Sequence record: OK570374
DNA from: Escherichia phage UoN_LG358_1
Reading direction: 5' to 3' (one strand)
Length of the DNA stretch: 64,000 bases
Below, one piece after another: positions 1-64,000 of the stretch (the stretch's first letter is position 1; each line of letters opens with the position of its first letter). The position numbers and the translations under genes were made by a program. The notes under the pieces were generated by a model that was not told the DNA's origin, ran no database searches, and was given only the letters and a program-made list of their open reading frames with translations.

Positions 1-2123
1 TCTTCAAGCATATACCAAATCACTGGGTATTTTTTAGCAAATTCGTCAGAAGCTTTATTAAAATCAGACTTTGACGATAAGATGAGTTTATTATAAATCT
101 TATAACATAAAGCAATTTTTTTAGCAGCTTTTGACTGTTTCACTACTGTGTTAATAGAGCGGCAATTTAATGCTTCAGCCATCTGGTTGAGAACTAAAGA
201 CTTTTCCCAGTTATCACCGGAGATAAAATTCTTCAGCAACGGATTAAGTGCCTTTATATTAATCATAGCATTGAAGCGTCTGATATTAAACAAATGCGGA
301 TGAATTAAATCATCAAGTACGTCGTCAATCAAATCTGCATAACTATCAGCTAAAATATTAAAAACTGAAGTTAGAGAATTATTGTCTTTGACATATTTCA
401 TTGCGCTAGGACGAATAGTATAAAATTCTTTTATATCTGCCGCTTTACATGCTTGTCTAATATTTTCAATGCTGTAACTCGTAGAGCATTCTGTTCTTAA
501 TTCAACAATGTCTTCTCGATTAATTCCAACTGCTAAACCTTCCAATTCACGAACTTCATTTGCAGTTAAAAACAAATTAGTCGATTCCCAATGAAGTTCT
601 GAATCCAATTTCCATAGATGAACATTCGGAGATTTTGGACGTTTAACCGCATCTGAATTATCTGGCTTATTGATTTCAGCATCTTTGGCACGGGCTTGTT
701 CCATATCAGAAGCTTTAAAAATAACTACTTCATCGCCTTCAAACAACTTCTTGGCAAGTTCTACAACTTCTAAATGGTCTTCATTATTCGGGTCAATTAA
801 AATAACTTGACAGCCTTTATGAATATTAAGGTAACTCATCCCACGAATAGTGCTTGCTCTGCGGTTTGGCTTATCGTCAATCATAAAAACAATCTTTTTC
901 TGATTAACATGAATTAAGCCAGATGCCGAATATCGATTACGCGTGCTCCATGAATTACTAATTTTGCGGCGTTCAGCCATATCGCCGACAAAGTAAGTAT
1001 ACATATTAGATGAATACATTTTATTTTCGAGAGCACGTTGGTCGAAATAATCAAGCCATTCGCGGCAAGTTTTGCCTTGAATTTTTGATTGGCTATTACC
1101 AATAATAGCAAGAGACCTGCTGGAAAATTTCTTTAACTCACGGACCAGTTCTCGCTTATTGGTTATACTTTCAAGATGTTTGATATCGTCTCTTAGATTT
1201 GTTTCTTCGATTTTATTAATTTTATTGCGAATAGCTTCGATAGTTTCTTCATTGTAAGAAAGCTCTTCACGGCTAGGAGTAATATCAAGTTCACCTAATT
1301 CAAAATTAACATAAACTGTGTTATACTTATTATTCAACCATTCGCATTTGATACCAGGAACTTCTTGAACCTTAATCGGATAAACAATTCGTCCATAAAT
1401 CGCATATAAATTCGAATCAGTATCAAAATAAGAGCGTTGTTTATCAAACCACTGCTTTTCTGGAGTAAACTCTTCGAAATAATCAATATTGATATTAGCA
1501 CCTTGAATTTCTGGTTCAACACCAGCAAATGTGCGCAAAGTACGACGGACTTCATGATGCCACTTATCAATATCGTCAGTTTTTACCGGGACAGTAATTT
1601 CAATACCGGTGTATTCATCTTCTTCCATTGCTGTGTCAAACAGCGGAATAATTTCTGGGCCAGTATTTTTCATTATAGCGGTGTAACCGCGCTTACGGCC
1701 CTTATGACAAGAAACGACTGTAAAAGTTTTTGTATAGCTAAATGGAGATTTTGAGCCAAGACCCATTGCCCCGATGAAATCATTTGAGTCGGCTTTAGTT
1801 GAAGCAAAATAAGTATTATACAAGCCTGGAGCATCATCAGTTCCACGAATTTGTTCATCGCTCATACCTGGGCCAAAATCGCGAATTACGAAGCGCGGGT
1901 CTATACGAGTAGGAACTTTAATAGTGAACGGACGAGTTTGACCATTCAGTTTATGAGCATCGAGACAGTTAGTAGATAATTCACGAACGATAGCGTAAAT
2001 TTTATTGGTGTACAACTTGTCTGAAAGAACCATGAACGCTTTCATGTTGTTCTCAATGCCAAACTTACTTGCCTTTTGATTGGCTGAACCAAAAATCTGC
2101 TCTTCTTCTTGTTTAATAATCAT
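1..2123 (-). CDS. rIIA: rIIA protein, partial (3' end beyond window edge); GHKL ATPase-like N-terminus
   Basis: Open minus-strand frame from ATG at 2123 to the window edge; N-terminus MIIKQEEEQIFGS...YTNKIYAIVRELSTNCLDAH resembles T4 rIIA and a GyrB/GHKL ATP-binding fold; sits upstream of genes 60/39 as in T4. Confidence 0.7.
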   Translation of the reverse strand, partial: MIIKQEEEQIFGSANQKASKFGIENNMKAFMVLSDKLYTNKIYAIVRELSTNCLDAHKLNGQTRPFTIKVPTRIDPRFVIRDFGPGMSDEQIRGTDDAPGLYNTYFASTKADSNDFIGAMGLGSKSPFSYTKTFTVVSCHKGRKRGYTAIMKNTGPEIIPLFDTAMEEDEYTGIEITVPVKTDDIDKWHHEVRRTLRTFAGVEPEIQGANINIDYFEEFTPEKQWFDKQRSYFDTDSNLYAIYGRIVYPIKVQEVPGIKCEWLNNKYNTVYVNFELGELDITPSREELSYNEETIEAIRNKINKIEETNLRDDIKHLESITNKRELVRELKKFSSRSLAIIGNSQSKIQGKTCREWLDYFDQRALENKMYSSNMYTYFVGDMAERRKISNSWSTRNRYSASGLIHVNQKKIVFMIDDKPNRRASTIRGMSYLNIHKGCQVILIDPNNEDHLEVVELAKKLFEGDEVVIFKASDMEQARAKDAEINKPDNSDAVKRPKSPNVHLWKLDSELHWESTNLFLTANEVRELEGLAVGINREDIVELRTECSTSYSIENIRQACKAADIKEFYTIRPSAMKYVKDNNSLTSVFNILADSYADLIDDVLDDLIHPHLFNIRRFNAMINIKALNPLLKNFISGDNWEKSLVLNQMAEALNCRSINTVVKQSKAAKKIALCYKIYNKLILSSKSDFNKASDEFAKKYPVIWYMLE

Positions 2124-2635: not shown

Positions 2636-2640
2636 ACTAA

Positions 2641-2668
2641 AAAGGGACTCCCGAAGGAGTCCCTGTTA
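2641..2668 (-). terminator. putative intrinsic terminator (hairpin GGGACUCC-UUCG-GGAGUCCC followed by U-run on minus-strand RNA)
   Basis: Plus strand AAAAGGGACTCCCGAAGGAGTCCCTG; perfect stem with UUCG tetraloop and T-run in the minus orientation. Confidence 0.5.
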
Positions 2669-2824
2669 TTACCATGTGGCTTTTGACACCATACCTGTAA
2701 CTTTCTTCAAAGAGTTGTCCGGCTGACGAACACGAATAGTAGCTATATCGCCAGGGAGAGGAAGAGCATCTCCCCACATATAACCGAAACTTCCATCTAC
2801 AAGCGTTACCCAGATTTGTGACAT
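2669..2824 (-). CDS. small hypothetical protein (51 aa)
   Basis: Hand-translated ORF MSQIWVTLVDGSFGYMWGDALPLPGDIATIRVRQPDNSLKKVTGMVSKATW between gene 60 and the terminator; below the track's length cutoff. Confidence 0.25.
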   Translation of the reverse strand: MSQIWVTLVDGSFGYMWGDALPLPGDIATIRVRQPDNSLKKVTGMVSKATW

Positions 2825-2858
2825 ATACTCTCCTATACGGGCGGAATGCCCGTATTAT

Positions 2859-3386
2859 TTATTCACTCATCCAGACCTTGCGAGGAGCCGCATCATTACC
2901 CATAACCATTTCAAAAAGTTCTTTCCAATTTGGCGGCAATGACACTACGTCATAAACCGGTTGCTGAATAACTCGTTCATATTCATCTTCTTCCAAAGAA
3001 CCAAGTCCTTTGATGTAACGAAGTTTCCATCCAGCAAGTTTATCTTTTTCAGCTTCATATTCGGCGGCATTGTAATACCATTTTTGTTCAGAGCCCTTTG
3101 ACATAATAATCACTGGGGTTTTAACAAACCGAATACGTCCTTCTTCGAACAATTTCGGCCAATTAGCAAAGAACGCTAGCAGGCTTGGATAAATTGACCC
3201 TGTGCCAAATATCTCTATTGTGAGGTATATCAATGATTAGCCCGAAGGCTAACCATCAACATCAGCATCAGTCATGATGGCAATGTTTTTATAATTCAAA
3301 GAAGAAGTTGATGTACGACGTACAATTGTCTGGGCTTTATATGATTTCATATCAATTTCAGTTTCTTTAACTTTAGCAAATTTCAT
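2859..3386 (-). CDS. 60: DNA topoisomerase II small subunit gp60, interrupted by a translational-bypass coding gap (about 3204..3251)
   Basis: N-terminal 45 codons MKFAKVKETEIDMKSYKAQTIVRRTSTSSLNYKNIAIMTDADVDG end at GGT then TAG (3251..3249), followed by UAGCC-UUCG-GGCUA hairpin; same-frame C-terminal segment ...TGSIYPSLLAFFANWPKLFEEGRIRFVKTPVII...YIKGLGSL...NWKELFEM matches T4 gp60 on both sides of its 50-nt hop. Confidence 0.7.
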
Positions 3387-4086
3387 TTAAAACCTCATAA
3401 AATTTTTCATCAGGAGTCCAACCGTTTTTAAACTGATTGAACGCGATTTTGAACAGTTTCGTTTTGATAGTTATATTATTAACCGTTTTCCATTTAGCAA
3501 TTCCGGTTTTCTTATAACTAACTGGGTCATAAACGTTAGCATACCAATCATAAAGGGACGGAATCAACTTAACTGCGTCTGGATTGGTTTTAGATTTGTT
3601 ATACCAAGGTTTAGATTTTTCAAGGGCGGCTGCTACTTTTGTAGCGTTTAACGTGTTACCAACTCCGCATAAACCAAGGTCCTTTATTAAAGGGTCGTCC
3701 GTTCTTAGTCTATAGGTTGTGTTATCTTTATCCTTGTAAACTCCGTATCCTTTCACACCTTCAAATTTTCTTCCGTAATTTACGCCAACCCAATCTTCTT
3801 CAGTGTATTCGCCTTTCGTCAGTAATCGACATTCTCCAGTTTCTTTATTTCTAAGTAAAATTTTGTCACGCATGAACTCAGCAGACCAATCTGAAATCAT
3901 ATTAACATAATTTTTCCTGGCTATTTCATAAAGTTTAGAACGAAATATTGTTCCAGAATTCATTATCCGGTTCAAAGCATAAGACATTTCTTTGTTTTTA
4001 TGAATTTTAAACAATAACCAGTGCGCAATAAAATGTTCGCGATATGTCAATTTTACCAAATTATCTGAAGTATCTAATCCACCCAT
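3373..4086 (-). CDS. mobA: HNH homing endonuclease (MobA-like), inserted between topoisomerase genes 39 and 60
   Basis: 237-aa ORF; HNH signature HHILPRSMGGLDTSDNLVKL...EHFIAHWLL begins in the in-frame stretch upstream of the first ATG (up to 4167), so the true start is uncertain. Confidence 0.6.
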   Translation of the reverse strand: MGGLDTSDNLVKLTYREHFIAHWLLFKIHKNKEMSYALNRIMNSGTIFRSKLYEIARKNYVNMISDWSAEFMRDKILLRNKETGECRLLTKGEYTEEDWVGVNYGRKFEGVKGYGVYKDKDNTTYRLRTDDPLIKDLGLCGVGNTLNATKVAAALEKSKPWYNKSKTNPDAVKLIPSLYDWYANVYDPVSYKKTGIAKWKTVNNITIKTKLFKIAFNQFKNGWTPDEKFYEVLNEIC

Positions 4087-4167
4087 GCTTCTTGGAAGTA
4101 TATGATGAATTTCTCCTTTAACCGGCGGAACCCTGGTTTTACCCCGGGAAATTAGTTTTTCTATAAT

Positions 4168-5721
4168 TCATACTAAGTCTTTTACTTTTTTCCAGACGCC
4201 ATCAATAAAAATTTCGTCATTGATATTAACTACAATATCTTCACCGGCAACATTTACAGTATACCATTGTTCGCCGGCTTCAACTTCCGTGAATGGGTCT
4301 TCACCAATGACTAACCCAGTAATTGCACAAATATCAAAGATTTCTTTGTTTTTCAAAGCATCACCTGCAGACATTCCCCAGGTGTTCATCACTTTACCAC
4401 GTAATGGATAACCGCCATGAAGGGCACGGTCACGAGTATTAATTAGATAACCAATAGCAGAATCACCTTCTGTTAAAAACAAAGTTGTTTCTACTTTATC
4501 ATTACCATATTCGCCAGCTTTGATGTGTTTATGAACTTTAGCTTTGGCCGCCTTTTTCGCTGCTTTGGTTTCTGCTGCTTTCTCTGCCGCTAGTTTACGT
4601 GCTAATGCAGCTTCAATAATCGGCATTAAAATAGCATCAGATTTCATAATCTGATTAGAAATTTTCTTTGCATCGAGATTTAAGTGAGATTTAATTTCGC
4701 CCCATGGACTTGTAAGACGCTCTTTGGTTTGCGAGTCAAAGCGCAAGTTACTCATATCTCGAATAAACATCAACACAGTAAAACACTCTTTAATACGAGC
4801 TTTGTTTACTTCAATTTTGTGTTTACGTTTAATAGCCGGAATTAATTCATTAGCAATTTCGTCAATAACATAATCAATATGCGAACCGCCATTCTTTGTA
4901 TGAATGTTGTTAACATAAGTCATTTGACGAAAACCATCTGGAGAATTACCTATAGCCAAAGAATAATTTTCTTCATCAATAATGATAGCATTTTTATCAT
5001 ACTGCTTAGAATATTTTTTGAAATTACTATCAACTTTTTTATTGTTAAATTTAAATTCAATTTTTGGATAAACGACTGCCAATGTCTGTAAACGGTCCAA
5101 CATAATATCAAAATAAACATCATCAAAATTGTTCATTTCGAAATGGCTAAAATCTGGAATAAATTCTACCTTAGTTCCTTTATAAGAGGATTTTTTGGAT
5201 TTCCAAGAAACATTGTCAGAATTATTGCTACAAGAAACTGTTAATTCATTTTCTCCATCAGATGTTGTACCTTTAAACATAACAGAGAAAATATTAGTCA
5301 ATGAAGAACCAACACCGTTTTGCCCGCCAGTTTTACGCTCTTCATCAGCTCCAAAGTTTCCGCCTGCCTTAGTTTTCGTCCATGCTGCTACTGGACCAGG
5401 AATTTCTTCACCTTCAGGAGTAGTAACCATAGCCTGTGGAATTCCACGGCCATTATCTTCTACGGTCACTTTGCTTGTGGAAGAATCGATATTGACTGAA
5501 ATTTTATTAGCAAATTTAAAACTTGTACGGATAGCTTCATCAACAGAGTTATCGATAATTTCATCAATAAGTTTGAGAACGCCAGCTACGTATTGTACCC
5601 GCTTAAATTCGCCAAAAACAAAACGCTCATGAAATTCGTTAGATACACTTCCGATGTACATTCCAGGACGCTTAAGAACGTGTTCCTTGTCAGAGAGCAT
5701 TTGAATTTTATTTTCAATCAT
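4168..5721 (-). CDS. 39: DNA topoisomerase II large subunit gp39 (GyrB-like ATPase)
   Basis: 517 aa; MIENKIQMLSDKEHVLKRPGMYIGS... GHKL/TOPRIM motifs; length matches T4 gp39. Confidence 0.9.
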   Translation of the reverse strand: MIENKIQMLSDKEHVLKRPGMYIGSVSNEFHERFVFGEFKRVQYVAGVLKLIDEIIDNSVDEAIRTSFKFANKISVNIDSSTSKVTVEDNGRGIPQAMVTTPEGEEIPGPVAAWTKTKAGGNFGADEERKTGGQNGVGSSLTNIFSVMFKGTTSDGENELTVSCSNNSDNVSWKSKKSSYKGTKVEFIPDFSHFEMNNFDDVYFDIMLDRLQTLAVVYPKIEFKFNNKKVDSNFKKYSKQYDKNAIIIDEENYSLAIGNSPDGFRQMTYVNNIHTKNGGSHIDYVIDEIANELIPAIKRKHKIEVNKARIKECFTVLMFIRDMSNLRFDSQTKERLTSPWGEIKSHLNLDAKKISNQIMKSDAILMPIIEAALARKLAAEKAAETKAAKKAAKAKVHKHIKAGEYGNDKVETTLFLTEGDSAIGYLINTRDRALHGGYPLRGKVMNTWGMSAGDALKNKEIFDICAITGLVIGEDPFTEVEAGEQWYTVNVAGEDIVVNINDEIFIDGVWKKVKDLV

Positions 5722-5760
5722 GTTATTATCCCAGTTTGAATTTGTCTGATAATTATATCA

Positions 5761-6126
5761 TCAATTTAATTTAGCAATTAATTCATCACGATATTTCATG
5801 AGATGATGAAGCGCCGGAGCCCCATATATAGGAGAACACAAACTTGAATTAGGTTTTTTACAAAATATGGTGTGAATAGCTTGCTCTTCACTTTCGTATG
5901 AAAACGTCAAAGTTTGGCTATACCGGTCATCATAATAGGCAGCATAATTATTTTCTTCAATTACGATAAATTCTTGAACAACTTTATAATATTTTTGTAA
6001 CCAGATGCACCGTCCGTTATCCAATTTAGTCGGGAACAATGCGAATTTATATTTTCCAATCGCTCGTTCAACTAATCTAAGCTTGCTGGCGGCATTCTTT
6101 TGAATTGAAGATTTTCCAAATATCAT
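5761..6126 (-). CDS. hypothetical protein (39.1 position)
   Basis: 121-aa ORF in track. Confidence 0.45.
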   Translation of the reverse strand: MIFGKSSIQKNAASKLRLVERAIGKYKFALFPTKLDNGRCIWLQKYYKVVQEFIVIEENNYAAYYDDRYSQTLTFSYESEEQAIHTIFCKKPNSSLCSPIYGAPALHHLMKYRDELIAKLN

Positions 6127-6147
6127 AATATTTTTCTCACTTAGCTG

Positions 6148-63176: not shown

Positions 63177-63253
63177 TGGTCGAGACAGAAGGATTCTAAC
63201 CTTCAACCTACGGTTTAGAAGACCGTTGCTCTATACTATTAAGCTATGCCTCG
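63177..63253 (-). tRNA. tRNA-Arg (anticodon UCU), CCA encoded
   Basis: Hand-folded cloverleaf: acceptor CGAGGCA/TGTCTCG, D stem GCTT/GAGC, anticodon stem ACGGT/ACCGT with loop CTTCTAA, T stem GAAGG/CCTTC. Confidence 0.55.
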
Positions 63254-63819
63254 GAAATAGTTTTGCGTCTATATACTTCTCCGTCGTAATATTTATCGAC
63301 AAGACGCTTTACTTGACTGTGTGATATTTTTAATATTTTAGAGGCATCAGAAACCCACCCAAATTTAGTTTTATCCACGTCTTTTATTAAGTTTAATTGA
63401 GACGTAGATAATTCTAGACCTCTAATCTTGGCTTTAGCACTACCAGCTTTTCCTAGTTTAACACCGGCCAAATAAAGTTGTTCCTTGGTTCGAGTATCAA
63501 CTCTTTTTCCATTTGTATGGAGGTCTTTATTATTTTGGCTATTAGTAGCGCAATAAACATTTTCAATAGAATAAGGTCCAGAATCACCGATGCGACACAT
63601 ACAATATTGTTGAGCTTTATTACCGCGTTTTTCTAATTTTCCAGTTGAAATCCACCAATTAAGCCAGGACTCATATGTAAATAACCATTCTATGTTTCTA
63701 GCCTTCGCCTTTCTTCTTTGATTTTCATATTTAACTTTCATGTTTATTGCTTTCACTCGGCTATCCAATTTTAAGAAGAGTGAGAGTCTTAGTCTTGTAC
63801 GGAGTAACCTTTTATGCAT
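63244..63819 (-). CDS. hypothetical protein in tRNA cluster; possible HNH-family (HNH_3-like) homing endonuclease
   Basis: YCMCRIGDSGPYSIENVYCATNSQNN resembles an HNH_3 core with Arg in place of His; start uncertain (ATG 63819 or 63741). Confidence 0.35.
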   Translation of the reverse strand: MHKRLLRTRLRLSLFLKLDSRVKAINMKVKYENQRRKAKARNIEWLFTYESWLNWWISTGKLEKRGNKAQQYCMCRIGDSGPYSIENVYCATNSQNNKDLHTNGKRVDTRTKEQLYLAGVKLGKAGSAKAKIRGLELSTSQLNLIKDVDKTKFGWVSDASKILKISHSQVKRLVDKYYDGEVYRRKTISEA

Positions 63820-63877
63820 TGGCAGCTATCGCGCGATTCGCACTTCCGATAAATGGAGTTACCGTTACACTCTAATT

Positions 63878-63953
63878 TGGCTGGGAATACTGGGCTCGAA
63901 CCAGTGCATCCCGGAATCAAAATCCGGTGCCTTACCAACTTGGCTAATTCCCA
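63878..63953 (-). tRNA. tRNA-Gln (anticodon UUG), CCA encoded
   Basis: Reverse complement TGGGAATTAGCCAAGTTGGTAAGGCACCGGATTTTGATTCCGGGATGCACTGGTTCGAGCCCAGTATTCCCAGCCA folds as a canonical cloverleaf. Confidence 0.8.
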
Positions 63954-63959
63954 ATTATT

Positions 63960-64000
63960 TGGTGGCCCCTGCTGGACTTGAACCAGCGACCAAGCGATTA
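63960..64000 (-). tRNA. tRNA, 3' portion only (5' part beyond window); identity undetermined
   Basis: Reverse complement ends ...GCTGGTTCAAGTCCAGCAGGGGCCACCA (T arm, acceptor 3' strand, CCA). Confidence 0.5.

Follow-up and report, generated by a model that had tools for sequence, protein, structure and literature searches.

The 64,000-nucleotide stretch of Escherichia phage UoN_LG358_1 that we analysed (sequence record OK570374; hereafter, the window) very probably carries a programmed translational bypass cassette of the T4 gene 60 type, borne on a MobA homing-endonuclease element in the Toprim region of the topoisomerase II large-subunit gene. In textbooks, gene 60 bypassing stands as the extreme case of translational recoding, and to our knowledge bypassing of this type was known from T4 only for about 30 years. 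Judged by its sequence, the window is a Gelderlandvirus, an S16-like Salmonella phage; its first 20 kb have 98.6% identity to Salmonella phage S16 and 99.0% to STP4-a. By the same measure, the cassette is already known: it is identical to that of S16 and was described in 2022 in a bioinformatic preprint (Manning & Atkins, bioRxiv 2022, 10.1101/2022.08.31.505936). That preprint places the MobA element in six phage clades, Salmonella phages among them, lists S16 with GGU and GGC as take-off and landing codons, and describes a conserved UAG, a UUCG stem-loop with compensatory changes, a mini Shine-Dalgarno (mini-SD) sequence 5–7 nt upstream of the landing site, and conserved residues in the N-terminal segment of gene 60 (NTE). 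The novelty implied in the original prediction is therefore not supported, the GGU/GGC pair being listed for S16 and in-frame gaps being present in three other clades.

Because an identical cassette has already been described, the present one adds little as a discovery; its residual value is as a natural variant (tRNA-Gly3, a 48-nt gap, and a 16-bp helix) for mechanistic work, and we found no experimental test of bypassing in an S16-type cassette in the literature. Where nature has changed the tRNA or the lengths of gap and helix but left the core signals in place, the variants reveal which features are really needed; they are also ready-made constructs for models of P-site tRNA identity, of the 'extended stem-loop' as a motor, and of mini-SD positioning. 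There is also a practical fix to annotation, as gp60 of this clade is split into two unrelated CDSs in GenBank.

The minus-strand ORF 3386..3249 codes for a 45-aa peptide (MKFAKVKETEIDMKSYKAQTIVRRTSTSSLNYKNIAIMTDADVDG) and closes with GAT GCT GAT GTT GAT GGT TAG, which confirms base for base the predicted N-terminal segment ending in GAT GGT TAG; the Toprim DADVDG motif is encoded in it, as is the nascent-peptide signal (Table 1). The TAG is followed by CCUUCGGGCUAAUCAUUGAUAUACCUCACAAUAGAGAUAUUU and then by GGC ACA GGG UCA AUU UAU CCA (TGSIYP), with the frame open to 2859 through the remainder of the Toprim/TOPRIM_C region. The predicted UAGCC-UUCG-GGCUA hairpin is present at 3251..3238 and is identical to the T4 core, and the larger take-off stem-loop around it contains both the take-off codon and the UAG. 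Between GGT and GGC there are 45 nt, so that in the counting convention used for T4 (where the gap is 50 nt) the gap is 48 nt, in frame, and has TAG and TAA inside it, as had been proposed. The codons are also as proposed, GGC at 3206..3204 being a matching landing codon, but it is not the nearest one: a second GGC lies inside the hairpin (3242..3240), where landing would be non-productive because a UAA is directly next to it. The corresponding 5′ stretch of the T4 gap is left unscanned (2024 Atkins-lab preprint). The GAG at 3215..3213 has the same 6-nt spacing to the landing codon as in T4, and in the window cassette the stretch from the hairpin to the landing codon is free of GG. On the plus strand, the ORF list holds no ORF of at least 30 aa that overlaps 3204..3254.

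Table 1. Predicted gene 60 bypass cassette and neighbouring genes in the window.
Feature	Position	Strand	Basis or remark
Gene 39-like ORF1, topoisomerase II large-subunit N-terminal part, 517 aa	4168..5721	minus	Pfam HATPase_c and DNA_gyraseB
mobA HNH homing-endonuclease gene, disrupted	3373..4171	minus	S16 alignment, translation
Gene 60 N-terminal segment (NTE), 45 codons, ending at the take-off codon	3252..3386	minus	
Take-off stem-loop, 16 bp (AUGUUGAUGGUUAGCC / GGCUAAUCAUUGAUAU), UUCG tetraloop	3227..3262	minus	Fold and covariation
Take-off codon GGU (Gly45)	3254..3252	minus	Letters read directly
UAG stop, predicted in the A site at take-off	3251..3249	minus	Letters and ORF list
Hairpin core UAGCC / UUCG / GGCUA	3251-3247 / 3246-3243 / 3242-3238	minus	
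Coding gap, predicted to be untranslated, 48 nt, UAG through landing codon	3204..3251	minus	In frame, with UAG and UAA
AUACCUCA motif within the gap	3221..3228	minus	Pairwise gap alignments
Mini-SD GAG, 6 nt 5′ of the landing codon	3213..3215	minus	
Landing codon GGC	3204..3206	minus	Decoding would restart at ACA 3203..3201
Gene 60 C-terminal segment, 114 codons and stop	2859..3203	minus	Pfam TOPRIM_C; 8yo3 alignment

Joining GGT to GGC gives ...DADVDG-TGSIYPSLL, with one glycine, in agreement with the gene of the close relative STP4-a. STP4-a has a single uninterrupted topoisomerase gene of 608 codons, and in a four-way alignment the element is a clean insertion relative to it: STP4-a reads GAT GTT GAC GGA ACA GGG TCA (DVDGTGS), the inserted genomes read GAT GTT GAT GGT, then TAG plus 42 nt, then GGC ACA GGG TCA, and the join regenerates DVDGTGS exactly. 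The insertion point is the invariant G of the Toprim DxDxDG motif, which becomes the junction glycine. Residues 1–159 of the fused product align to residues 517–676 of T4 gp39-gp60 (PDB 8yo3) with no gap at the junction; the one gap, of a single residue, lies upstream in the NTE. The first 45 residues also align to the nascent chain of T4 resolved in a stalled ribosome (structure 5np6, 5np6_C). We propose that bypassing would yield one gp60 of 159 aa and 18,426 Da (18.4 kDa), with a predicted junction peptide that contains DADVDGTGSIYPSLL and a predicted tryptic junction peptide NIAIMTDADVDGTGSIYPSLLAFFANWPK. GenBank records of the S16 clade annotate two separate CDSs for gp60 and miss the 159-aa product.

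The RNA signals are unlikely to have arisen by chance. The 14-mer TAGCCTTCGGGCTA, which is the T4 hairpin core, occurs once in the 64-kb window (0.13 occurrences are expected when two mismatches are allowed), and the predicted folding energy of the stem-loop is −19.8 kcal/mol (z = −5.4), a value that none of 200 shuffles equals. Its helix is a contiguous 16 bp, as compared with 10 bp and −14.7 kcal/mol predicted for the equivalent T4 segment. [quoted passage not shown] We ruled out the hairpin as a terminator, since a scan of the minus strand gave no terminator-like site, and an Rfam scan that included self-splicing introns assigned no family to the region, its sole match being a chance snoRNA (E = 0.73). 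When the regions upstream and downstream of the cassette were folded in search of a T4-type 5′ stem-loop and 3′ forward barrier, they were no better than shuffles, and the T4 regions were equally so; Manning & Atkins (10.1101/2022.08.31.505936) describe both the 5′ stem-loop and the barrier structures as poorly conserved.

The nascent peptide and the gap are conserved. The equivalents of T4 Y16, Q19, R24, Y33, M39, and T40 are invariant in nine aligned NTE variants or clades, and the position of T4 V22 is V in eight of the nine, the window included. The gap is 80–86% identical to the T4 and Proteus-phage cassettes versus 68–73% for the coding DNA on either side (the NTE and 150 nt downstream, in which third positions are only ~50% identical). 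Coding DNA next to the gap thus diverges more from clade to clade than the gap does, which speaks for selection acting on the RNA as such. The gap is also 100% identical in S16, SEA1, and two Logan contigs, but such constancy inside one clade is weak evidence of selection, since mobA shows as little change between the window and S16; the cross-clade comparison is the stronger argument.

Within the gap, AUACCUCA (3228..3221) is common to the S16, T4/HY01, Proteus-phage, and Shewanella Thanatos-1 cassettes (as AUACCUCA in Thanatos-1), and gap alignments show that the Acinetobacter clades lack it. No string with CCUC in it is present in the text of the preprint by Manning & Atkins. In predicted folds, the CUC of this motif can pair with the mini-SD GAG, a pairing without covariation support.

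If gene 60 were truly split, the 45-aa peptide would end at the UAG, a separate C-terminal protein would start in or after the gap, and the two would assemble non-covalently with no hop. Gene callers and GenBank do place separate starts here (ATT, TTG, or an ATG further downstream), division into gp39 and gp60 already makes the topoisomerase a split enzyme, and an in-frame ORF of 124 aa begins with UUG at 3233, so that frame alone permits internal initiation. However, this UUG lies in the 3′ arm of the −19.8 kcal/mol helix and lacks a good SD, the annotated starts are mutually inconsistent, and a split would sever the invariant DxDxDG Toprim motif from the next helix. Two polypeptides would also leave the GGU/GGC pair, the GAG spacing, the GG-free gap, the T4-like peptide residues, and the conservation of the gap above that of coding DNA without explanation, and we consider a split gene very improbable.

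The gap length, a multiple of three, would equally permit read-through of both the UAG and the UAA, which would add 16 residues to the Toprim domain and give a product ~1.8 kDa heavier, and the Proteus-phage clade has only one in-frame stop between the two parts of the gene. A wild-type host, however, would achieve two successive suppressions, one of them at UAA, with extremely low efficiency, and the insertion would sit directly after the invariant DxDxDG. Because the T4, KARL-1, Thanatos, and Aes012 homologues are out of frame (50, 43, 52, and 17 nt), the family is independent of read-through; we regard this as the least credible of the alternatives, with hardly any chance of being correct. 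Programmed stop-codon read-through at a single leaky stop was also rejected as a class for the window cassette, which has two in-frame stops, UAG and UAA.

To place the bypass cassette among its relatives, we used the NTE in a tblastn search, which returned 75 phage records from Escherichia, Salmonella, Proteus, Acinetobacter, Aeromonas, and Shewanella phages plus two partial Enterobacter-phage matches, and we took cassettes from representative phage records and from Logan metagenome contigs (Table 2). [quoted passage not shown] We dropped the in-frame gap as a special property of the window, as four of the eight cassette types are in frame, near the one-third expected by chance, and the S16 type shares the trait with three other clades (42, 51, and 57 nt). 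A take-off at an Asp codon in the style of KARL-1 was ruled out for the window, where GGU precedes the UAG and GAU-to-GAU landings give out-of-frame nonsense.

Table 2. Take-off and landing codons and gap lengths of the extracted cassettes.
Cassette	Take-off / landing	Gap	Frame
Aes012	GAC / GAC	17 nt	Out of frame
Stupor, LemonAid	GGU / GGC	42 nt	In frame
KARL-1 group	GAU / GAC	43 nt	Out of frame
S16 clade and window	GGU / GGC	48 nt	In frame
T4, HY01	GGA / GGA	50 nt	Out of frame
Pm5461	GGG / GGA	51 nt	In frame
Thanatos-1	GGU / GGU	52 nt	Out of frame
Logan L023-25	GGG / GGA	57 nt	In frame

The closest known cassette is that of S16, whose sequence is identical from 3269 to 3184, a segment that runs through take-off codon, hairpin, and gap and includes the GAG and the landing codon; the NTE protein, the CTE (the element-encoded C-terminal extension of the gene 39-like ORF), and mobA are the same apart from a deletion in mobA, and the order of gp39, homing endonuclease, and two 'gp60-like' CDSs is shared. 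The window differs from S16 in this 11-nt mobA deletion, in six synonymous changes in the NTE, and in its STP4-a-like flanks. With T4 gene 60 the cassette shares the insertion glycine in DxDxDG, the UAG after take-off, the hairpin core, the GAG spacing, the conserved nascent-peptide residues, and 80% identity in the gap. Unlike T4, which has GGA/GGA (tRNA-Gly2, UCC) and a 50-nt gap with a frame change, the window has GGU/GGC (tRNA-Gly3, GCC) and a 48-nt gap in frame, and its NTE is one residue shorter, with V in place of T4 H44.

Two other members of the element family have in-frame gaps and some of the same features. Proteus phage Pm5461 has a 15-bp take-off helix and an ACCUCA motif along with its 51-nt gap, but differs from the window in its GGG/GGA codons and its single in-frame stop. 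Acinetobacter phage Stupor has GGU/GGC codons as in the window and a 42-nt gap, but its loop is GCAA, AGG stands in place of UAG after take-off, and its gap is only 58% identical. In Stupor and LemonAid (L006/L007, ~620..680), the gap runs GGT AGG ... TAA ... TTT GGC, with one TAA in frame. In its text, the preprint has Stupor-type cassettes 'shift frame', whereas by our count they are in frame.

Three Logan contigs (L023-L025, from DRR848657, SRR30397383, and ERR10789510; ~2636..2700) carry an undescribed Proteus-like variant with GGG take-off, GGA landing, and an extra AAGAUUAA before the mini-SD; its in-frame gap of 57 nt is the longest in the survey. A fourth (L026, a 922-nt contig from SRR26879390) has the NTE variant MSKLMKLSDIDMSKYKAQTNVRRKAMKSNMSYNNVAIMTDADVDG and ends GAT GGT TAG CCTTCG, the contig stopping within the hairpin. 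A protein-database search with the 45-aa NTE returned only four clusters, as such short ORFs are rarely called, and gave these Proteus-like variants and the partial GGT-TAG contig. A scan of IMG/VR for GAYGGNTAGCCTTCGGGCTA gave one contig, which is probably Pm5461-like and adds no diversity.

By analogy with T4, we envisage that a ribosome would translate the 45-codon NTE and arrive with GGU in the P site, bound by peptidyl-tRNA-Gly(GCC), and with UAG in the A site, where the nascent peptide and the UUCG-capped take-off stem-loop would favour dissociation of codon and anticodon over termination. The ribosome would then slide 45 nt with the peptidyl-tRNA retained, GAG would pair with the 16S anti-SD and so position the ribosome, and the tRNA would re-pair with the GGC six nucleotides downstream of the GAG, decoding restarting at ACA. 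GGU and GGC are both read by tRNA-Gly with the anticodon GCC, so the proposal that one such tRNA could serve at both codons holds by established wobble rules. The phage tRNA cluster (63177..63953) encodes tRNA-Arg(UCU) and tRNA-Gln(UUG), and since neither the window nor the S16 tRNA cluster (Gln, Met) has a tRNA-Gly gene, a host tRNA is the likely carrier, most likely host tRNA-Gly3(GCC) and not the tRNA-Gly2(UCC) of T4. The end of the window at 64000 may cut off the tRNA-Met that is present in S16.

It is possible, though we think it unlikely, that the S16-type cassette is a functionally distinct variant, in which the use of host tRNA-Gly3(GCC), the non-identical codons, the contiguous 16-bp 'extended' helix, and the conserved AUACCUCA would go together with an efficiency or regulation perhaps unlike that of T4. 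With the gap in frame, a single reporter would allow a direct comparison of the products of bypass, termination, and read-through.

The element is otherwise organised as in S16. The last ~44 codons of the gene 39-like ORF are the CTE, and the alignment to the parental STP4-a breaks at ~4297, the start of the insert. In the window, mobA has lost 11 nt (GTTTGATATAT) after codon 3 (after 4162; window 4150..4175, S16 locus L001 2239..2270), a deletion defined against S16, the SEA1-independent Logan contigs L016/L020, and AKM_NP4. It shifts the frame, with a stop after 10 codons, and the remaining ORF (4086..3373, 237 aa) begins downstream of the EIHHILPRS HNH motif; in S16 MobA this motif is the only part with an HNH match, and that a weak, sub-threshold one (residues 24–43), and the 237-aa remnant has no Pfam match. 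Apart from the deletion, the mobA DNA is identical to that of S16 at 771 of 771 positions, and the MobA/CTE/NTE architecture is the same. As judged from its reading frame, mobA is a pseudogene in the window, and the bypass cassette is by the same reading intact. At the DNA level, the gap presumably shields the target site of the element itself against cleavage by MobA, as shown for T4.

T4 topoisomerase mutants (genes 39/52/60) are viable, with DNA synthesis delayed, and this, together with the frameshift in mobA, might suggest that the window holds a decaying relic, in which the endonuclease is dead, gp60 is made inefficiently, and host gyrase or reduced topoisomerase suffices. We think this very improbable. 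Endonuclease decay is found also in T4, KARL-1, and Aes012, and SEA1 is without mobA altogether; in T4 the endonuclease is likewise defective, yet bypassing is efficient. In the window, the cassette and NTE have no disabling change, none of the six NTE differences from S16 alters an amino acid, and S16, SEA1 (with mobA lost), and the window have one and the same gap sequence.

What is new to the window appears to be only the mobA deletion and the presence of an S16-type element in an STP4-a-like backbone, both of them minor. A three-way map of SNPs shows S16-like sequence at 4369..3177, between stretches that are STP4-a-like (6146..4477 and 3138..2744), the S16-like block comprising the element with ~70 nt upstream and ~25 nt downstream. 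Such a mosaic is consistent with homing accompanied by co-conversion, or with recombination of the element into an STP4-a-type genome. The six synonymous differences from S16 are all transitions and are clustered in the 117-nt NTE (3354, 3345, 3324, 3318, 3282, and 3270), and five window-unique synonymous sites lie just 3′ of the landing codon, at 3183..3153; one possibility is that this synonymous cluster is a patch from a third element or parent.
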